A DNA stretch of 47,928 nt from a virus (lineage: Duplodnaviria > Heunggongvirae > Uroviricota > Caudoviricetes), in the IMG/VR virus record IMGVR_UViG_2541047918_000003; one strand, written 5' to 3'. How positions within the stretch are numbered: position 1 is the first letter of the stretch; the number at the start of each line of letters is the position of its first letter. The notes below the pieces were generated by a model. The model was not told where the DNA came from, searched no databases, and saw only the letters and a list, made by a program, of their open reading frames with translations. Below are positions 26,004 through 47,928 of this stretch, one piece after another. The translations under genes and the position numbers were made by a program.

Positions 26004-26384
26004 TTACTTTTTTAGCAGCCAGTCGTCCATCTCCAGTCTTACCCCCAGCACAGACAAACATCCGTCAATAAACCCTTCGGCTATCTGCATCTCAATTCGT
26101 ATTGCTTTTTCGCTTTTCTTTCTCGTCCTGGCTATCTGTCTTTTTGATATTCGCAACAAATAATGAGCAATGAGAAGCGAATACTCCTCAGGTTTTTTCT
26201 GCTTCAGACGAGCAAGACAGTTTTCAATGATAAGTCCGTCATCATCGCAGCAGGCCGGACGTGGTTTAGTGGCAGATGGTAAAAGTCCTTTGAATCCGGC
26301 AGCGATCGGAGAATAGTCCACCCCGGTGTTACCACTTGCAGCCCATGCCCCCCAGCGTTCAAGAACCATCTGAATATCACGCAT
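26004..26384 (-). CDS. late antiterminator Q (small Q family, QuuD-like)
   Basis: Starts MRDIQMVLERWGAWAA...; ATG at 26384 with GGAGAAAG upstream; the track ORF starts at an upstream TTG. Confidence 0.7.
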   Translation of the reverse strand: MRDIQMVLERWGAWAASGNTGVDYSPIAAGFKGLLPSATKPRPACCDDDGLIIENCLARLKQKKPEEYSLLIAHYLLRISKRQIARTRKKSEKAIRIEMQIAEGFIDGCLSVLGVRLEMDDWLLKK

Positions 26385-39033: not shown

Positions 39034-40347
39034 ATGGATAAAGTCAAATATCCAACAGGCGTCGAAAACCACGGCGGCACATTACGCATCTGGTTTAATT
39101 TTAAAGGTAAACGTGTCAGGGAAAATCTTGGTGTCCCTGACACTGCCAAGAACAGGAAGATCGCCGGGGAACTGCGGACATCAGTATGTTTTGCCATCCG
39201 CACAGGAAGCTTTGATTATGCTGCACAGTTCCCTGACTCCCCCAACCTTCAGGCTTTTGGGGTAAGTAAAAAAGAAATTACGGTGAAGGAACTTGAAGAA
39301 AAGTGGCTGGATCTGAAACGAATGGAAATCTCTGCAAATGCATTCAATCGCTATGAATCCGTTGCAAGAACGATGGTTCCGAAAATTGGAGGCAGTAAAC
39401 TGGTGTCATCGGTAACCAAAGAGGAATTGCTGTATATCAGGAAAGATTTGCTGACCGGGTATCAGAATTCAACGAAAAACAAAGCAGCAGCAAAAGGACG
39501 GAGCGTCGTTACTGTAAATTATTACATGACGACAATCGCTGGAATGTTTCAGTTTGCTGCAGATCACGGTTACTTAGAAGCAAATCCCTTCCAGGGAATT
39601 AAGCCTCTTAAAAGAGCCAGGGCAGAGCCAGATCCGCTAACTCGTGACGAATTTATTCGCCTGATAGATGCTTGCCGACATCAGCAGACGAAAAACCTGT
39701 GGTCATTGGCTGTGTACACAGGAATGCGTCACGGTGAACTGGTCTCCCTGGCCTGGGAAGATATCGATCTGAAGGCAGGAACAATTACCATCAGGCGCAA
39801 TTATACGAAACTTGGTGAGTTCACTCTACCGAAAACTGAAGCAAGCACAAACAGGGTTGTGCACCTTATCCAGCCCGCTATCAGTGTCCTGAAAAATCAG
39901 GCTGAAATGACAAGACTGGGTAAGCAGTACAACATCAAGGTGCAACTACGTGAATATGGACGTTCAGTGAACCATGAATGTACTTTCGTGTTTAACCCTC
40001 AAGTGGTTAGAAAAAGCGAACAGGTAGGTTTTGTCTACAAAGTCGATTCTGTAGGTGACTCATGGGAAACAGCCATTAAGCGTGCAGGGATCAGGCATCG
40101 AAAGGCATACCAGTCACGACACACTTATGCGTGCTGGTCATTATCTGCCGGAGCAAACCCAAGCTTCATTGCCAGCCAGATGGGCCATGCAAGTGCCCAG
40201 ATGGTATTCAATGTATACGGAGCATGGATGACTGACAGCAATGCAGAACAGATCGCAATGCTGAATCAGAAGCTGACAGATTATGTCCCAATGATGCCCC
40301 ATAGTCACCAAAGTGACACCAGAGGCTTATTAAAATCAGTAAGTTAA
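39034..40347 (+). CDS. int: tyrosine integrase
   Basis: 437 aa; conserved Arg, His-x-x-Arg (SRHTYACW) and C-terminal Tyr; GGAGG RBS; stop abuts the host gene remnant. Confidence 0.9.
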   Translation: MDKVKYPTGVENHGGTLRIWFNFKGKRVRENLGVPDTAKNRKIAGELRTSVCFAIRTGSFDYAAQFPDSPNLQAFGVSKKEITVKELEEKWLDLKRMEISANAFNRYESVARTMVPKIGGSKLVSSVTKEELLYIRKDLLTGYQNSTKNKAAAKGRSVVTVNYYMTTIAGMFQFAADHGYLEANPFQGIKPLKRARAEPDPLTRDEFIRLIDACRHQQTKNLWSLAVYTGMRHGELVSLAWEDIDLKAGTITIRRNYTKLGEFTLPKTEASTNRVVHLIQPAISVLKNQAEMTRLGKQYNIKVQLREYGRSVNHECTFVFNPQVVRKSEQVGFVYKVDSVGDSWETAIKRAGIRHRKAYQSRHTYACWSLSAGANPSFIASQMGHASAQMVFNVYGAWMTDSNAEQIAMLNQKLTDYVPMMPHSHQSDTRGLLKSVS

Positions 40348-40373
40348 TCCTTAATACCCGTCATGTTAACTGC

Positions 40374-40775
40374 GTGGAGGGTAACACCACGCTTTATGCC
40401 CTGCCGAAACCCGAGGTTGTCCTGCGCTGGCGTGAGCAGACCACAGATGACTTCCGCTTCTGTTTTAAGTTTCCGGCGACCATTTCGCATCAGGCAGCAT
40501 TACGGCATTGCGATGATTTAGTGACTGAATTTTTGACCCGCATGTCACCGTTGGCTCCGCGCATTGGACAATACTGGCTGCAACTGCCTGCCACATTCGG
40601 CCCACGGGAGCTGCCTGCGCTTTGGCATTTTCTCGATTCTCTTCCCGGTGAATTTAATTATGGGGTGGAAGTCCGCCATCCACAGTTTTTCGCCAAAGGG
40701 GAAGAGGAACAAACGCTTAATCGCGGTTTACATCAGCGCGGCGTTAATCGGGTGATTTTTATTAGACACGTTTAA
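40374..40775 (+). pseudogene. yecE: internal fragment of a DUF72-family host gene (yecE-like), truncated at both ends
   Basis: 133-aa ORF with a DUF72-like pattern (EGNTTLYALPKPEVVLRW...FRFCFKFPATISH...); frame is open upstream into the int 3' end; sequence diverges at about 40757. Confidence 0.6.
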
Positions 40776-40825
40776 ATACACCATCTAAAACGATACAATC
40801 TAGGGCATCAGTTTTGAGGTGAACA

Positions 40826-42349
40826 ATGAAACGTGCCATTTCTTACATCAGGTTTTCATCTGAGAAGCAATCCCGAGGTGATTCATTACGCCGACAGTCT
40901 AAGATGGTTAATGACTGGCTTAAGGCTCATCCTGAGTACTACCTTGACCAAGATTTATCTTTTCGTGATTTGGGGGTGAGTGGGTTCACTGGTAAGCACT
41001 TGAAAGGTGGCTTAGGTGACTTTTTAACCGCTATCGAGAAAGGGCTTGTTAAAGCTGGTGATACGCTCTTGATAGAATCTCTTGACCGTCTGTCACGTCA
41101 AGATGTAGACCAAGCAAGTGAGCTACTCAGAAACATTCTTCGCTCTGGTGTAGATGTGGTCACCTTGTCCGATGGTGAACATTACACAAAGGAAAGCTTA
41201 AAAGACCCGTTAGCTCTGATTAAAAGCATTTTGATAATGCAGCGGTCGCATGAGGAGAGTTTGCGTAAATCTGAACGTATCCAAGCTGCATGGGATGCAA
41301 AGAAAGAAGCTGCTAAAGCCGGTATCAAGATTTATAAGCGTTGTCCTGCATGGCTTAAGCTTAATGATGACCGTAAGACCTTCTCTGTGATACCTGAGAA
41401 GGTAGAAACTGTGAAGAGGTGCTTTCAATTACGGTTAGAGGGTAAGTCTATTTGGGAGATTGTCAGGACTCTTAATGATGAAGGTCACCAGACACTTAAC
41501 CAGTACAAAGCAGGTAAGTTTGGTCAAACCTCAGTGCAAGACCTTCTGAAAAATCGCTCTGTAATTGGTTACTTCACACCTAAAGGCTGTGAGGAGATAG
41601 CTGGTTATTTCCCCCCTATCATCCCTGAGACTGATTTCTACAAAGTCCAGCAACTATCATATTCTCGTTATGGAAGAAAGCCTGCTTCAGATAAACCATT
41701 GAGTGTGAATCTTTTCAAAGGTGTTATCCGTTGTTCTGAATGTGGTCATGCTTTGATTATCACAGGCTTTAGCGATACAAGAAACGGGATTTATCGTTGT
41801 CCTCTTCGTAATGAAAACCGTTGTAGTGCTAAAGGACTTTCACGTAAGCAAACCGATGGTACATTGCTTGCCCTGCTATCCCGTATAGACCGATTTGATA
41901 GCGATATGACGAATACCATAGACACACTGAAGCTACACCGTGAACACATCTCAAGCAATATTGAAAAGCTGGTACAGCTATCACTTGAAATTGAAGACTT
42001 GTCCGCTATTACCAGCAAACTAAAACAGTTAAAAGGTGAGCTATCACAGGTTGATGCGGATATCGAGAAGGAGACACAACGCCTTAAATCTATTGATGTT
42101 GGTTGTTTGTCTGATTGTGACTTGACTACAAAGGCGGGAAGGATTGAAGCACAACTGATAATCAAAAGTGCTGTTAAAGAGGTCATTTTAAATACTGCTA
42201 AACGTCGCTGTAAAGTAACTTTTCACAATAGTAAGTCAATCACCCTACCAATAACAGAAACCCCCTCAGAGGACGTTACAGAGGCTATACAGTCGCTTTC
42301 TGAAGTCACTGAGAGGGGGTTGATAGATGTTGATGAGGTTATCATATAG
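40826..42349 (+). CDS. large serine recombinase (integrase)
   Basis: 507 aa; N-terminal resolvase-type domain MKRAISYIRFSSEKQ; Cys-containing recombinase domain and coiled coil; GAGGTG RBS. Confidence 0.9.
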   Translation: MKRAISYIRFSSEKQSRGDSLRRQSKMVNDWLKAHPEYYLDQDLSFRDLGVSGFTGKHLKGGLGDFLTAIEKGLVKAGDTLLIESLDRLSRQDVDQASELLRNILRSGVDVVTLSDGEHYTKESLKDPLALIKSILIMQRSHEESLRKSERIQAAWDAKKEAAKAGIKIYKRCPAWLKLNDDRKTFSVIPEKVETVKRCFQLRLEGKSIWEIVRTLNDEGHQTLNQYKAGKFGQTSVQDLLKNRSVIGYFTPKGCEEIAGYFPPIIPETDFYKVQQLSYSRYGRKPASDKPLSVNLFKGVIRCSECGHALIITGFSDTRNGIYRCPLRNENRCSAKGLSRKQTDGTLLALLSRIDRFDSDMTNTIDTLKLHREHISSNIEKLVQLSLEIEDLSAITSKLKQLKGELSQVDADIEKETQRLKSIDVGCLSDCDLTTKAGRIEAQLIIKSAVKEVILNTAKRRCKVTFHNSKSITLPITETPSEDVTEAIQSLSEVTERGLIDVDEVII

Positions 42350-42363
42350 TTGAGATTCTATCG

Positions 42364-43137
42364 TCAGAATCGCTTGTTAGGATTCACAGAAAATTTCTTC
42401 AAAGTACTACCTGTACCAGCATTATTAAGCACCTTTGAAGCTTGCGCATTAGCGGCATCTGAGAAGGTGCTTTTTCCATTCTCAACTTTGACACTTTTAC
42501 CACAATTGATACGGGCTTGAAGTTGCTCATTAGTGAGTTCACTCGTAGAGCGATTATATAGCTCCTGACACAGCAACATACCATTACCTAGACTTGTCGT
42601 AGTGTTACCAGTGTTCTTCTTAGAAGTTGCACCACCATCATTCGTGGTAGCAGTCTTTCCAGTTGCAGCAGAAATATCAGTCTGACCAACAATAGCTTTG
42701 AAGTTAATTTCCTGAAAAGTTAGCTGGATTCTTAGACCGTTTGAAATCCCCACATCTTTAGAGGCTTTAAAACTCGTAATAATGGAATCGTCAATTTTAA
42801 TTCCGTCTTTACAGATGACCGAAATAATCTGTTTCTGGTCACGCCAGCTTTCAAGAGTGTCGATGAAGTTTTCTACTAATTGACCCTGACGAGTTAATAA
42901 TAAGCTTCCTTCATAGCCAACTACAACGACACCACTAATAGTGATTGTTCTGGGTGCTCTTTGCACATTATCTGTAACGGTTTGTCCTGATTGCATGTTC
43001 TGTGTAGTCACCTGCATAGGACTATCAAATTCCATGTTTTCAGTTGCTGATAAGGTTAAGAAGGCATCTACATTATCTCTTAAGTGGAAATAGATGCCGT
43101 CTTTGCCACTATATTTGATTTGGTTAGAGTAAATCAT
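42364..43137 (-). CDS. hypothetical protein downstream of the tape measure (possible distal tail protein)
   Basis: 257 aa from the ATG at 43137 with AAGGGGAA upstream; Ser/Thr/Asn-rich. Confidence 0.45.
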
Positions 43138-43211
43138 TAAATTCCCCTTTGATTTCAAAGGCTTAGTGTATTTTAATCATTTTTAACCAAGCCTTTGATA
43201 TATAAGTGTTT

Positions 43212-43288
43212 TCTCTGTTAAGCGTGTTGTACGTAAATTCTATTTTTCAGTGTGGGTATTAGCTTTACAGATTTCACGTAGCATTCGA
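43212..43288. repeat. copy A of a ~77-bp direct repeat
   Basis: Shares CTCTGTTAAGCGTG, TACGTAAA and AGATTTCACGTAGCA with copy B at 45357-45433. Confidence 0.6.
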
Positions 43289-43294
43289 CTATTA

Positions 43295-45343
43295 TCAATC
43301 ATCTTCTGGGAATGATGAACTTAATAGCGTAGCTTCTGCGTATTGGTCGTAGATATTACTGCTAAAGGTCATAAAGCTGGTTTCATCTGGTTTAATGGCA
43401 ACTTCACCACCAAGTGAAACTTTCACAGGCTCCTGAATACGTTTGCTCAAAGCACTAATTTCATCTCTCAGGCTTTGGATATCCGTATTCGTTAATGCCG
43501 CATCTTGTCTCATGGTGATTAATTCTGGATGCTGGAAGTTAGCAAGATTCATAGCTGCACTATTAAACCAACCTTTCACATCGTCCATAGTAAATACTGG
43601 CTTAAGTCCAGATTCTTTAGCTAACTCTGGTAATTTAGCTTGTGCTTCCATTCGTTCAGGTGTAGAGGCTAGTCTTTCATAACCTGCATAGAGAGCGCTA
43701 CCAGCTAATAGCATATTCCCAAGATTCAGTCTTGATGGTTTCCCATTCTTTCTATTCACGTTATCCGCTGTAGTATCAGCAACCTGACCTAATCTTGTGA
43801 TAGCAGTCATAAGCCCGTAAATACTTCTGGTTACACCAACAACTTTATTTACAGCAATAACACCAGCCAAGACTTTTAAACTATTAATCAAGCCAGAACC
43901 TAAAGCATCAACAACTTTCTTTTGTTCATCGGTTAAACCACGATAAGCTAATGTCACCTCATCAAAGAACGCTCGCACCTTGTAACTAATATCGGCCAGA
44001 CTATCGACACCATGTGACATATCAGTCATCAAGCTACCAAGAGATTCACCAAGACTTTTACCACTTCCACCAAGAGCGTTTAAAAGCGTTGTTAAGCTTC
44101 TTGTAAAATCTTGCAGACCACTTTCAGAACCTCTGAAGATACTATCAAGCGTGGTATTCCAAGAGTTTTTCAGGTTCCCTAATTGTGCCTGTGTACTTTC
44201 TGAAATAGCTTTCCAGCCACCTTTAGCGGTGATTTGTCTATTCAGTTCCTGAGTGACCTTCTGAAGAGTATCGGCAGATTTTAAAGCCCCCTTCTTCATG
44301 GCATCAAATAATTCCTGTTCAGTCTTTCCGGTTGCTTTAGCGAATACCTGAACCATACCAGGAACAGCTTCAGCTAGTTGCCCCTTAAGCTCTTCAGCCA
44401 TAACCTGACCCTTACCAGCCATCTGTGATAATGCTGTCAGTGCTCGCTTAATCTCTTCTTCACTTCGACCCATCAGACGAGAATAGCCAATCATACTTCT
44501 AAAAAGTTCTTCAGAACCTTGAATACCCATAGACTCTTTAGCTGAAGCACCGAAACCAGCAAACTGTGATTGCAGTTCAGCGATATCTAAACCCGTTGTT
44601 TGAGCTAATGACTTTGTGAACTCTTTTACCTGACCTGCATCTTTATCAAATACGAAATCAATTGAACGTTCAGCACTTGCACGCTGTAAACCAATTTCCA
44701 TTACTCGCTGATAAGCTGCCAAAGCACTTTGAAAAGTGTAAATAGCCGTACCCGCTTTAATTGCACTTGAAGCTAGTACATCTAAACCATTTGAAGCATT
44801 TTCACTGTGATTATTTTTGCTGGTGGTCTTGTTAAACTTAGAAAGTGTTTCACGTAGATTTTGATTTAACTTTGCTAACTCACGATTAAAAGCTTCGTTT
44901 CCAAGTGTCTTGGATTTACTACTTAATGCGTAAAACTGACTCTTAATGTATTTCTCGACAATTGGGTTAAGACCTTTCAGCTTAGACATATTCGCTGAAT
45001 AAGCCGCTGTGATTGCTCTGTTGCCGCTAATTCGTGGCTGTCTTGGCTGTCTAAGTGGCTTTAAAGTATCCTCAATTTCCGTTTTAATCTTAAACGCTCT
45101 AGTGTTTTTAAGACGCTGCTCAATCTTGTCAAAGGTCTTATTAAACTTCCTTTCAAGTTGCCCTAAAGAACTTGTCAGATTGCTGTCAAGTTGCTTGGTA
45201 TCGACCTTAAACGCTCTATTCAAATTACGTTCAATTCTTTGTGCTGACTGCAAAGCTGCCTTTTCAACTCTTTGCAAGCCCTTAATAACGTTCTCGCTGA
45301 AGCCTAGCTCAACGATAAAACTATCAACTTTAAATTGTGCCAT
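43295..45343 (-). CDS. phage tail tape measure-like protein
   Basis: 682 aa; central motif RALTALSQMAGKGQVMAEELKGQLAEAVPGMVQVFA; long coiled-coil segments; GAGGTGA RBS. Confidence 0.7.
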   Translation of the reverse strand: MAQFKVDSFIVELGFSENVIKGLQRVEKAALQSAQRIERNLNRAFKVDTKQLDSNLTSSLGQLERKFNKTFDKIEQRLKNTRAFKIKTEIEDTLKPLRQPRQPRISGNRAITAAYSANMSKLKGLNPIVEKYIKSQFYALSSKSKTLGNEAFNRELAKLNQNLRETLSKFNKTTSKNNHSENASNGLDVLASSAIKAGTAIYTFQSALAAYQRVMEIGLQRASAERSIDFVFDKDAGQVKEFTKSLAQTTGLDIAELQSQFAGFGASAKESMGIQGSEELFRSMIGYSRLMGRSEEEIKRALTALSQMAGKGQVMAEELKGQLAEAVPGMVQVFAKATGKTEQELFDAMKKGALKSADTLQKVTQELNRQITAKGGWKAISESTQAQLGNLKNSWNTTLDSIFRGSESGLQDFTRSLTTLLNALGGSGKSLGESLGSLMTDMSHGVDSLADISYKVRAFFDEVTLAYRGLTDEQKKVVDALGSGLINSLKVLAGVIAVNKVVGVTRSIYGLMTAITRLGQVADTTADNVNRKNGKPSRLNLGNMLLAGSALYAGYERLASTPERMEAQAKLPELAKESGLKPVFTMDDVKGWFNSAAMNLANFQHPELITMRQDAALTNTDIQSLRDEISALSKRIQEPVKVSLGGEVAIKPDETSFMTFSSNIYDQYAEATLLSSSFPEDD

Positions 45344-45356
45344 TGTTCATATTTCA

Positions 45357-45433
45357 CCTCTGTTAAGCGTGAGCTACGTAAAAAATAATTTTTGGTGGGT
45401 ATATCTGTTCAGAAGATTTCACGTAGCACACAT
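45357..45433. repeat. copy B of the ~77-bp direct repeat
   Basis: About 80 percent identical to copy A; lies in the leader region upstream of the tape measure gene. Confidence 0.6.
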
Positions 45434-45526
45434 ACAAAAAAGGGAGAAACTACCGAATAATATCGATAATCTCTCCCCGTGTTATAGATTCGATAGAACC
45501 TATCTCATACACCCAACCAATCTTTT

Positions 45527-45736
45527 TTAATGCCTGACAAGATAATGTAGTTCCGTTTCACCTATAATTTGAGCATCGGAAGGGATACGGTCGATACACC
45601 ACTTTGGAATCTTGCGTGTTTTTGGTTTGCGTGAGGTGATAATTTGATGTTTGGTTTTAATTCTTAAGGCTGGCTTAGTTTGTAACTTTAAGTTTTCACA
45701 AACAGACCGAATAGTCTCTAAACGTTCTTCAAACAT
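45527..45736 (-). CDS. hypothetical basic protein (69 aa)
   Basis: AAGAGGTGA RBS; Lys/Arg-rich. Confidence 0.45.
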   Translation of the reverse strand: MFEERLETIRSVCENLKLQTKPALRIKTKHQIITSRKPKTRKIPKWCIDRIPSDAQIIGETELHYLVRH

Positions 45737-45759
45737 TAATCACCTCTTTTAATTCATAA

Positions 45760-46467
45760 TCAAAGTGCTTTGCTGTATTTCTGAGAAATCTTCGTTAACT
45801 GCTCAATATCAGCCTGCATAGCAACCTTCTTCTGCGTTTCATAGTCACTAATAATCGCTTTCATGCTATCAAGTTCTTTTTTAAGCTTTTGCTTTAACTT
45901 ATCCAGTTTACCGGAATAATGCTTAGTCAAATTAGCTTCAGCTAACTGAAGAATCTCTTCATCTGTTTTATCACTCATCAGAATAAATTGACCAGAACCC
46001 CTTAATGCTTGTCTGACATCAATTAACCGGAACCCTTCAGGGATACTTTGAAGAACTTTAGGAACGTCTTCAATCGCTGTACCAAAACCATCATTAAAGT
46101 TTCCTTCATAATAGATAAACGGGTTTGACTTAATCTCGTAAGCAATATCATATTCTGAAGGTTTCGAGGTTTCTTCGAAGTTCTTAACCGCATCGTAAGC
46201 AATATCAAGTTTAATTCTTTGTGCTTTCAGTAGTGGGTAATATTCACGCTCAAGCTCAAGTAATGATTCAGTTTTGCATACATCAGGCATCTCTTGAGGT
46301 TCAGGAGTCACAAAGATGATTTCCTTTGGTGACATCTTTAACTCTTGCTCAAGTGCAATTCTTTCATCGTGCTCTTTGCGCTGAATAGCGATAGCTGGAT
46401 GTTCAGTCTGTGGTGACCAGTCACCGAAGCTATCAATCTTTTTACCGTTAATATATAGATTTTCCAT
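45760..46467 (-). CDS. hypothetical protein (235 aa)
   Basis: Start MENLYINGKK at the ATG at 46467 with GAGGAAAA upstream; coiled-coil C-terminus. Confidence 0.5.
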   Translation of the reverse strand: MENLYINGKKIDSFGDWSPQTEHPAIAIQRKEHDERIALEQELKMSPKEIIFVTPEPQEMPDVCKTESLLELEREYYPLLKAQRIKLDIAYDAVKNFEETSKPSEYDIAYEIKSNPFIYYEGNFNDGFGTAIEDVPKVLQSIPEGFRLIDVRQALRGSGQFILMSDKTDEEILQLAEANLTKHYSGKLDKLKQKLKKELDSMKAIISDYETQKKVAMQADIEQLTKISQKYSKAL

Positions 46468-46720
46468 TTCATTTTCCTCTTCTAAGTAATATTCAGTTTT
46501 TAAAAAGCACACCTGACAGCCTATCTAAACTTAGAAGAGACTTAAAAGGCGGTTTGCCAAGTATGCTTTTTAAAAGCTGAAAAAGCCCTAAACATAGGTG
46601 ATTCGGATATTCATGGAATCATCCTTATCTGTGAAGGGCTTTGGAGGTTTGCTTTATAACGTTAACGAAGTTTCAGGAAAAACTTTCTTTAAAAGTTCTG
46701 TTTAAAAACTCTTAAAGAAA

Positions 46721-46740
46721 GCCCTAATCATGATTAGGGC
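46721..46740. promoter_or_regulatory. 20-bp perfect palindrome, candidate operator
   Basis: GCCCTAATCATGATTAGGGC; the AGCCCTAA half-motif recurs at about 46585, 47006 and 47413. Confidence 0.45.
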
Positions 46741-46962
46741 AAAGCTGTAAAGGGTTCAATGAATGAATGATTAAGCACTTTTCGAGATGACCTCTCAGGT
46801 TATATAAGAGGCCATGTAGCGAAAAGCATTGCACCTTTCAGAATAACTATCCCTAGATGTAGATGGAATTGTTGAAAGAAATAAGAGAGCAATTCTCTCT
46901 ATAATTAAAATTATGTCATGCTTAAGGTTATTTGTCAACAGCTTTTTAACAGATTGGTAACA

Positions 46963-47040
46963 TTAATTCTTATTTACCGTATTACCTACCCAGCAACCAA
47001 CAAATAGCCCTAAAACCGTCCAGAGAATAACGAGTGTCAT
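46963..47040 (-). CDS. candidate 25-aa hydrophobic peptide
   Basis: MTLVILWTVLGLFVGCWVGNTVNKN; its ATG overlaps the stop of the upstream gene (TAATG). Confidence 0.25.
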   Translation of the reverse strand: MTLVILWTVLGLFVGCWVGNTVNKN

Positions 47041-47345
47041 TACATCACCTCACTGTAAGGGTTTAATTCATTCTGATAGGTCAAGAATACATTCAGCTTC
47101 AATAATTGCTCCGGGCTTAAATCAAGTCGGTTGCATTCGCTTGTGATAAATCTCTTGTAGTCTGGGTCTGTTACTTCCAGTTTATGAACAAAGTCACCAA
47201 GTTTAATTTCGTTGATTATATGCTTGTCAATATACGTTGACGCTTCAAAACAATGCATGAAATAGATATTAAAGCCCGACCTGTTCAGGTCATTAAGCCA
47301 ATTCATAGTTTCTTGGTCAACCATAACTTGCATTGAATAATTCAT
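47040..47345 (-). CDS. hypothetical protein (101 aa)
   Basis: AT-rich ORF; no family recognised. Confidence 0.4.
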   Translation of the reverse strand: MNYSMQVMVDQETMNWLNDLNRSGFNIYFMHCFEASTYIDKHIINEIKLGDFVHKLEVTDPDYKRFITSECNRLDLSPEQLLKLNVFLTYQNELNPYSEVM

Positions 47346-47491
47346 TTTTAAAATCCTTCCTGTATCGCATTCTAAGACGTTTTAACCCCTTTTTTAGACC
47401 ACTTAAGGCGATTCCCTAAGTTACCCTGATTAGGGGCTTAAAATCGCTTAGAATTCGTCTGGTAAAGCCTGAGAGATATGTTTTACTGTTT

Positions 47492-47707
47492 TTAGCTCAA
47501 GTCTGAGACTAATAGCCCCATCTGGTGACCGTAGTCTTTTAACCAGCTTTGCTTAACCGGAGCCTTCAGAGAATAGTTAGGGGCTGACAAGTGAAGATAG
47601 ATATCATCTTTGCCGTGGATGCTTCCCCATCCTTCGTATAACTCAAGCAAGTTTTCAAAATAACGAAATGCTTTATTAGTCTGAAGTTGTACTGTGATAG
47701 TTTTCAT
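47492..47707 (-). CDS. hypothetical protein (about 71 aa)
   Basis: ATG at 47707 overlaps the upstream stop; the track ORF starts 12 nt further upstream. Confidence 0.4.
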   Translation of the reverse strand: MKTITVQLQTNKAFRYFENLLELYEGWGSIHGKDDIYLHLSAPNYSLKAPVKQSWLKDYGHQMGLLVSDLS

Positions 47708-47928
47708 CAAGCACCCCATTCAGAAATAAGCTTAATTCCCTGCTCAAGCTGTTCAGGGTCGTTATAGTCGAGTATTACCAGTGGCTTTAATTCGTGTTTA
47801 AGCTGGTGGATTTGAGAGGGTTTTAATCGTTTGTTTGCTTTGAGGGTCACATCTTCAAATTCAGCATCTGCTAAATTCTGTCTGATTAGGTGGCTGCCAA
47901 GTGTGGAATATTGGAACCTGTAACACAT
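47707..47928 (-). CDS. hypothetical protein, possibly truncated at the window edge
   Basis: ORF runs to the last base of the window. Confidence 0.35.
   Translation of the reverse strand: MCYRFQYSTLGSHLIRQNLADAEFEDVTLKANKRLKPSQIHQLKHELKPLVILDYNDPEQLEQGIKLISEWGA

Follow-up and report, generated by a model that had tools for sequence, protein, structure and literature searches.

A serine-recombinase island in the yecE gene of Escherichia coli as a candidate satellite of virulent Felix O1-like phages

To our knowledge, only in Vibrio cholerae have satellites that parasitize strictly virulent phages been studied in detail, with PLE and its phage ICP1. Here we describe an island in the yecE gene of Escherichia coli, most of which lies at the right end of virus record IMGVR_UViG_2541047918_000003 (47,928 nucleotides; this entire stretch is referred to as the window). 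The island is probably a PLE-like satellite of the virulent Felix O1-like myoviruses (Ounavirinae) and would build chimeric tails with its own tail proteins. That its relatives in E. coli, Shigella, Salmonella and Citrobacter form a widespread satellite family, making such tails and copying the terminal-repeat boundary of the helper for packaging, we regard as an even call.

PLE of V. cholerae carries a large serine recombinase and is a parasite of the virulent myovirus ICP1 (PMC12987554). It encodes a tape measure protein (TMP) and a tail chaperone of its own, to which some variants add a baseplate hub protein (PMC12987554, 2026), and the resulting chimeric tails are about 10 nm shorter (PMC12987554). 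This was the first report of satellite-built chimeric tails, published in 2026, and the further candidates listed there are only Vibrio PLE-like elements and some cf-PICIs (PMC12987554).

The yecE island resembles PLE in its large serine recombinase, its own replication initiator and the lack of capsid and terminase genes. Like PLE, it has its own TMP, shorter than that of the helper (95 aa shorter in PLE11; PMC12987554), and a hub-proximal baseplate protein, both of which, judged by sequence, fit the tail of the proposed helper, likewise a strictly virulent myovirus. The island differs from PLE in its hosts (Enterobacteriaceae), in the phage group concerned (Ounavirinae), in size (11.2 kb versus about 18 kb) and in having no tail chaperone homolog. 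Furthermore, the tube initiator and the TMP termini of the element are nearly identical to those of the phages, whereas the PLE11 proteins are 20-41% identical to their ICP1 counterparts, and for the yecE island helper dependence is a prediction. The profile of the 235-aa protein family of the island and its Rep protein match no PDB chain, solved PLE proteins included, in a partial comparison that covered the solved PLE structures. As far as the solved PLE proteins show, the element does not appear to be a PLE by homology.

P4-like satellites, PICIs and capsid-forming PICIs (cf-PICIs) of Enterobacteria share with the island a size of 10-15 kb, chromosomal integration, a replication module of their own and an expected dependence on helper virions, but use tyrosine integrases and temperate helpers, whereas the island has a serine recombinase. 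Pfam and PHROG scans of the island detected none of the hallmarks of P4-like satellites (Psu, Sid, Delta/Ogr, alpha primase-helicase) or PICIs (AlpA, Pri-Rep, TerS/Ppi/Rpp), and no component of the cf-PICI module (HK97-type capsid, portal, protease, terminase, connectors). Some cf-PICIs have a predicted tmp gene (PMC12987554, Extended Data Fig. 10) but, unlike the island, also carry the capsid module. Tail-assembly interference defenses (Tab-type proteins and Rta of PLE11) resemble the island in that their target is tail assembly, centered on the TMP; they are, however, small inhibitors, whereas the island encodes full-length substitutes that look assembly-competent. The literature searched contained nothing on a satellite of Felix O1 or Felixounavirus, a satellite in yecE, or TMP-bearing satellites of E. 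coli.

Boundaries, free form and distribution of the island

The flanking sequence was taken from the chromosome of E. coli JNEC-KY173 (KY173; NZ_AP045169.1), to which the window is identical; positions in this locus, denoted L001, are converted to window positions by adding 20299. The window holds the left 7.2 kb (40753-47928, about two-thirds) of an island of 11,202 bp from core to core, which runs 3.7 kb past the window end up to attR (L001 31656-31662). Alignment with the intact yecE of K-12 as the empty site identified the crossover core TGATTTT, common to attL (GGGTGATTTT followed by TATTAGACAC) and attR (CCTTGATGATTTT followed by AGACAGCC). The host gene is split, its 5' part stopping at window position 40757 and its 3' part restarting at L001 31655; position 40757, which the first-pass annotation had given as the start of the element, falls within the attL core.

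The island has a G+C content of 38.8% (36-42% in the window part), close to the 38.9% of phage garuso and well below the approximately 50% of the host and of the lambdoid prophage, which bears out the earlier remark that it is AT-rich and distinct from that prophage. In E. coli ECCNB20-2 (ECCNB) and PT109, a serine-recombinase island with the same gene order occupies yecE without an adjoining prophage. The island is an element separate from the neighboring lambdoid prophage, and it is not part of a larger prophage, because the flank shows yecE split and the island stopping at attR. As a side observation, yecE, a classic Shiga toxin (Stx)-prophage site, is occupied twice in this chromosome (window 39034-40757): the lambdoid prophage (tyrosine integrase at 39034-40347) adjoins the 5' end of the gene, and the serine-recombinase island lies in its middle.

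The element excises precisely, because the predicted attP joint (GACCTTGATGATTTTTATTAGACACG) was found in free forms assembled in two metagenomes. Among the public contigs searched, the joint occurs in one metagenome contig of 11,473 bp (L023), where it lies mid-contig, with the whole element circularly permuted around it and no yecE flank. In the other assembly, an 11,770-bp contig (L028) with identical ends of 141 nt contains the same joint and represents a circle of 11,629 bp. Several Logan contigs of about 11 kb were considered as further circles and rejected, being integrated copies broken at yecE or wrbA. The last approximately 45 nt of L023 are Illumina Nextera adapter (CTGTCTCTTATACACATCT...), an assembly artifact at the contig end and foreign to the element.

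Among the 13 open reading frames (ORFs) of the island, all scanned with Pfam and PHROG, none was matched to a capsid, portal, terminase, sheath, tube or lysis function, and no variant seen keeps any capsid, terminase, sheath or lysis gene. Among 5,426 complete E. coli genomes, 478 match the TMP DNA and 534 match the non-coding region (about 9-10%). Copies are also present in Citrobacter sp. and Shigella flexneri, and Salmonella, E. fergusonii and E. albertii are among the source names; on plasmids (PLSDB), the element was not found. The order of the core is constant: recombinase, tube initiator, TMP, and proteins of 67-72 aa, 235-258 aa and 94-109 aa. The rest comprises variable small ORFs, a replication module of either of two kinds and, in most variants, a Dam-like methylase, with a unit size of 11.0-11.6 kb across variants. 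In a protein collection clustered at 90%, the 235-aa protein is joined by 3,073 relatives, from E. coli, Shigella, Salmonella and E. fergusonii; it is specific to such elements, since it is represented by just 18 clusters among 1.84 billion proteins. A sub-group with a recombinase of 532-547 aa sits not in yecE but at the 5' end of wrbA, as the ends of L011 (1-60) and L035 (both ends) encode the N-terminus of WrbA (MAKVLVL / LVLYYSMYGHI); wrbA, too, is a classic Stx-prophage site.

Phage tail genes beside an integrase, together with the insertion sequence elements found inside the TMP gene of some copies, are features that a decayed remnant of a temperate Felix O1-like relative, with most genes lost, could also display. 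Such a descent is scarcely plausible. Hundreds of genomes from several genera share one compact gene order, with intact ORFs and a size of about 11 kb, at either of two integration sites; capsid, terminase, sheath and lysis genes are missing from every variant, and the gene set is uniform and minimal; the element still excises; and the Ounavirinae are strictly virulent, with no temperate relative in the phage collection searched. Of the three options raised in the first-pass annotation (decayed prophage, satellite-like element or something not yet described), the decayed prophage is accordingly dropped, the element stopping at attR inside yecE after 11.2 kb, and the satellite is favored, with virulent Felix O1-like myoviruses as the likely helper. 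The retrieved flank holds no conventional prophage to which the island could belong, and no phage matched the element as a whole.

Tail genes and non-coding DNA related to Felix O1-like phages

The 682-aa tape measure gene and the single 257-aa gene that separates it from the recombinase were confirmed (Table 1), but two of the initial statements about them had to be revised. The TMP gene is not an orphan, because its 257-aa neighbor is its natural partner, the tube initiator. Nor is a siphovirus tail module missing: by homology, the tail genes are of the myovirus type, that of virulent Felix O1-like phages (Ounavirinae), so that the missing parts are sheath, tube and baseplate.

Over 544 nt, the 257-aa gene is 93-94.5% identical to DNA of more than 200 Ounavirinae (Felixounavirus) genomes; its counterpart in phage garuso, gp119, directly follows the TMP gene. 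Residues 6-185 of the tube initiator, that is, its tube-like N-terminal domain, are approximately 100% identical to the phage protein, and the last 70 or so have diverged. The protein matches the 'Tube initiator protein gp018' in the virion structure of Felixounavirus Bas63 (PDB 9ndy) with an E-value of 2e-129, and the TMP matches gp017 of the same structure with an E-value of 2e-63. The gene order, TMP followed by tube initiator, is that of gp17 and gp18 in Bas63, but the genes of the element reside in a chromosomal island with an integrase and are separated by a 157-nt spacer with a conserved cassette, whereas the phage genes overlap.

Compared with the 735-aa TMP of garuso (BLASTP), the TMP of the element shows an overall identity of only 27%, unevenly distributed along its length. 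Its first 45 or so residues are 75-82% identical to the phage protein and the core 7-57% (windowed identity, six variants), and the last 10 or so are again phage-like, with the C-terminal motif LLSSS(F/Y)PE(D/E)(D/E) kept. Phage-like termini combined with a diverged core were observed in all six element variants compared. The cores are strongly mosaic between variants, and the TMPs of the elements (682-726 aa) are all shorter than those of the phages (735-742 aa).

In the Bas63 virion, the tube initiator is a hexamer whose tube-like domain reconciles the three-fold symmetry of the hub with the six-fold symmetry of the tube and whose C-terminal extension of about 100 residues passes through the baseplate, while the final 25 residues of the TMP touch the hub and the puncturing device (PMC12609058). 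By comparison with this structure, the phage-identical segments appear to include two docking parts, the tube-like domain and the TMP C-terminus, to which the docking reading is limited, the contacts of the TMP N-terminus not being described in the Bas63 paper. The TMP core and the extension of the tube initiator, on the same comparison, are replaced relative to the phage.

The tube initiator of the Citrobacter copy is about 70% identical to those of several Ounavirinae genera. Tracking of the helper by host was considered and rejected, as this protein is not especially close to those of Citrobacter phages.

A cassette of about 75 nt, absent from phage garuso, flanks the TMP gene on both sides (Table 1); KY173 and PT109 carry its two sequence types in exchanged positions. 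An RNA structure was considered for the cassette and rejected: the predicted hairpin has no covariation support, because its stem never varies. The mosaic TMP cores and the swapped cassettes suggest either that TMP genes are exchanged via the cassettes or that the cassettes are a common regulatory site.

Conserved contact surfaces around diverged cores are also what would be expected of poison subunits. Under this alternative, the locus would be an anti-phage island, stationary or merely integrative, in which the TMP and the tube initiator enter the tails of Felix O1-like phages by way of these surfaces and disable them, and the element itself is not packaged. The strong diversification of the TMP cores between variants is what an arms race predicts, and tail-assembly interference is known as a defense (He et al. 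2024 and Rta of PLE11, as described in PMC12987554). We nevertheless consider this explanation unlikely, given that it does not account for the tight size range of 11.0-11.6 kb, the replication initiator, the copy of the terminal-repeat boundary described below or the excised circles that assemble on their own in metagenomes, and that no known defense family was matched (PADLOC). Moreover, interference and hitch-hiking coexist in known satellites, so that the poison-subunit explanation would overlap with the satellite reading and not replace it.

The satellite reading also draws on the non-coding DNA beyond the window. At L001 30596-30674, the island contains a match of 58-78 nt (81-88%) to the intergenic DNA upstream of FelixO1 ORF85 and garuso gp96, which is present in 249 Ounavirinae genomes. 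Felixounaviruses use direct terminal repeats for packaging, and PhageTerm gave a 581-bp repeat in phage Pr103Blw (PMC8303462). This repeat, marked in GenBank, lies inside a 1.67-kb repeat-rich non-coding region of the phage. In KY173, ECCNB and L023, an ungapped stretch of 156 nt (L001 30696-30851 in KY173) aligns, in reverse orientation, across the right boundary of the phage terminal repeat. It comprises three colinear, well-conserved blocks (GTAACTTTTCAGACTCTGAAAATTTTTATAAAAT, AAAATATCTGA and CTTTGCAGAATTTTAAAATATC), one about 30 nt inside the repeat and the other two 20-105 nt outside, with the phage spacing kept. The local alignment score of 28 was reached in none of 300 dinucleotide shuffles (14.7 +/- 1.4, maximum 23), and coding windows of the island scored 13-17. 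Other variants carry other phage-like pieces, among them a block of 54 nt with about 76% identity to DNA within the phage repeat. The boundary match is probably a packaging-site mimic; an origin or a regulatory site is a possible alternative reading.

The word TTGACAAGGT occurs four times in garuso and twice in the 1.1 kb of ORF-free DNA of the island, and its 9-mer core TTGACAAGG occurs five times in garuso, against about 0.75 expected, mostly upstream of genes. A palindromic motif of about 31 nt (GAGGTTGATTCC-TAGAACAACC-GAATCAACT) is found at L001 30851-30882, 31266-31300 and 31617-31640 and near 26297 (approximately window position 46596), with one inverted half-copy adjoining attR. Its 36-nt form agrees at 33 of 36 positions with the terminal-repeat region of Mooglevirus Sf18, and a protein might bind to this motif. 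An ORF-free stretch of about 750 nt (L001 30870-31620), with no Rfam match, is nearly invariant in four variants whose proteins differ by 15-40%; an origin, a packaging region and a long non-coding RNA are all conceivable here. The 7-mers typical of the repeat-rich region of the phage are about 2-fold enriched in the non-coding compared with the coding part of the island; iterons shared with the phage were rejected on this basis, the enrichment being too weak. In garuso itself, 1.6 kb of ORF-free DNA at 48953-50602 (L009 3952-5603), the Felixounavirus terminal-repeat region, contain dense CTTGTTA/CTGTTAAGA repeats spaced by 11 nt; the region is located where transcription converges and has apparently no function annotated.

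The patches of near-identical DNA point to recent recombination with these phages, which needs only co-presence in a cell. The tail genes and the non-coding DNA could therefore have been gained during infections by an integrative element that moves otherwise, by conjugation or with another type of phage. We regard this as distinctly unlikely: Pfam and PHROG scans of the island revealed no relaxase, oriT or conjugation gene, the element is not on plasmids, and the phage segments kept (TMP termini, tube-like domain and terminal-repeat boundary) are selective and recur across diverged variants.

Proposed satellite cycle, points against it and implications

The satellite reading is favored because the element combines an integrase and a replication module with virion genes limited to two tail parts that look fitted to one phage group, because it contains phage-like regulatory and terminal-repeat-boundary DNA and matches the phage in G+C content (38.8% versus 38.9%), and because it is widely distributed, keeps to one small size and occurs as free circles. 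The element is integrated in yecE via its own large serine recombinase, as the att sites and the excised circles show. Infection by a Felix O1-like phage would lead to its excision and to replication from its own initiator and non-coding region. Its TMP and tube initiator would then be expressed and substitute for phage gp17 and gp18 in the baseplate and tube, a replacement that their phage-identical contact surfaces would allow. The usual tail length per TMP residue is about 1.5 Å; 53 fewer residues at this value would therefore give a tail about 8 nm shorter, and chimeric tails of this kind are the product expected from sequence, the Bas63 structure and the PLE precedent. The phage terminase would package the DNA of the element via the copied right terminal-repeat boundary, and the particles would carry the element to new cells, with a drop in phage yield.

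A number of points weigh against this reading. The identity of the helper, induction and replication triggered by infection, incorporation into tails, packaging, transfer and interference with the phage are all deduced from sequence comparison and precedent. The circles prove excision, not encapsidation, and the attP joint was absent from IMG/VR, as well as from the GTDB representative genomes. Among the 50,697 phage records searched, no phage resembles the island as a whole unit. An 11-kb genome in a capsid for 86-90 kb would need either small capsids or multimers. Small capsids would need a protein that redirects capsid size, and no capsid-size or packaging protein could be identified in the island; multimers are possible, as eight units of 11.2 kb make 89.6 kb, close to the 86-90-kb phage genome. 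The search of the island for a tail chaperone homolog was negative, the left terminal-repeat boundary has no convincing counterpart in the island, and the phage-like non-coding pieces differ between variants. Finally, a fold search returned only generic coiled-coil matches for the 235-aa protein and no match for the 69-aa protein.

If the satellite reading is correct, the island would represent, in the best-studied bacterium, an enterobacterial equivalent of the PLE-ICP1 system of V. cholerae. It would provide a tractable E. coli/Salmonella model for the sensing and hijacking of lytic phages by satellites, and for why satellites replace the TMP and how terminal-repeat packaging is subverted. 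Felix O1-like phages are in use for Salmonella typing, biocontrol and therapy; an element present in about 9-10% of complete E. coli genomes could reduce the efficacy of such phages and spread through treated populations.

Gene inventory and minor features

The features of the island located in the window are listed in Table 1.

Table 1. Features of the yecE island and its left junction within the window (window positions).
Feature	Position	Strand	Basis or remark
yecE 5' fragment (DUF72), cut by the insertion	40329..40757	+	RefSeq partial gene; aligns with K-12 yecE up to the core
attL core TGATTTT	40753..40759	.	attL/attR/K-12 alignment; second copy at attR, 11,202 bp rightward, outside the window
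Large serine recombinase (integrase), 507 aa	40826..42349	+	Pfam Resolvase 1.6e-20, Recombinase 8.6e-15, Zn_ribbon_recom 3.5e-7
Tail tube initiator (Dit-like), 257 aa	42364..43137	-	Pfam Dit_like 2.5e-20
Cassette of ~75 nt (GCTACGTGAAATCT...CACGCTTAACAGAG), upstream of the tube initiator gene	43204..43289	-	Kept in all variants compared
Tape measure protein (TMP), 682 aa	43295..45343	-	Pfam TMP_3 3e-20
Cassette of ~75 nt, second copy, other sequence type, upstream of the TMP gene	45349..45434	-	Sequence comparison of variants
Strong intrinsic-terminator-like hairpin, 16 pairs and T run	45441..45478	-	Consensus scan; between the 69-aa gene and the TMP gene
Basic 69-aa protein, element-specific	45527..45736	-	
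Coiled-coil 235-aa protein, element-specific	45760..46467	-	RefSeq label 'transposase'
Best sigma-70-like promoter of the island, TTGACA-17-CATAAT with TG	46910..46938	-	Consensus match 11/12, putative
Conserved 101-aa protein	47040..47345	-	101-109 aa in other variants
71-aa ORF in the variable small-ORF region	47492..47707	-	RefSeq CDS
73-aa ORF, stopping exactly at the window edge	47707..47928	-	

The recombinase also matches the integrase family PHROG 95 (6.5e-77). As initially described, it is followed by genes on the minus strand only, from 42364 to the window end. The putative promoter lies upstream of the row formed by the 235-aa, 69-aa, TMP and tube initiator genes, and the sequence of the terminator-like hairpin is kept in ECCNB, PT109 and L010.

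Retrieval of the sequence beyond position 47928, as the first-pass annotation had proposed, with profile searches and structure prediction, completed the 11.2-kb island and added a replication initiator and a Dam-like methylase to its inventory. Past the window, a pair of good sigma-70-like promoters (consensus) is flanked by a gene of 96 aa and a divergent, membrane-like ORF of 61 aa. A second 96-aa gene is also present, as is a 320-aa protein with a winged-helix N-terminal domain and a long acidic tail, which matches PHROG replication initiation families (3e-11). The Dam-like methylase has a C-terminal helix-turn-helix, and 1.1 kb of ORF-free DNA precede attR.

The impression that the small proteins belong to no recognizable family held: those of 69, 235, 101, 71 and 73 aa have no match in Pfam, PHROG, NCBIfam or PADLOC. 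Across the island, PADLOC matched no defense family and reported only an 'orphan methyltransferase' for the Dam-like gene and two weak matches at chance level, and Rfam contained no family matching anywhere in it. A tblastn comparison of the island proteins other than the TMP and the tube initiator with phage garuso found nothing. AlphaFold2 predicts the 235-aa protein to be a helical hairpin with a small alpha/beta domain (pLDDT 78). The name 'transposase', given to homologs of this core protein by RefSeq/PGAP, has no Pfam, NCBIfam or structural backing; a role as a capsid or assembly scaffold, or in redirecting capsid size, is only a guess.

Some variants encode an extra small resolvase/invertase (182-191 aa) beside the Dam-like gene, in the non-coding arm (L026 577-1143, L031 191-739, L035 571-1122 and L036 2079-2654).

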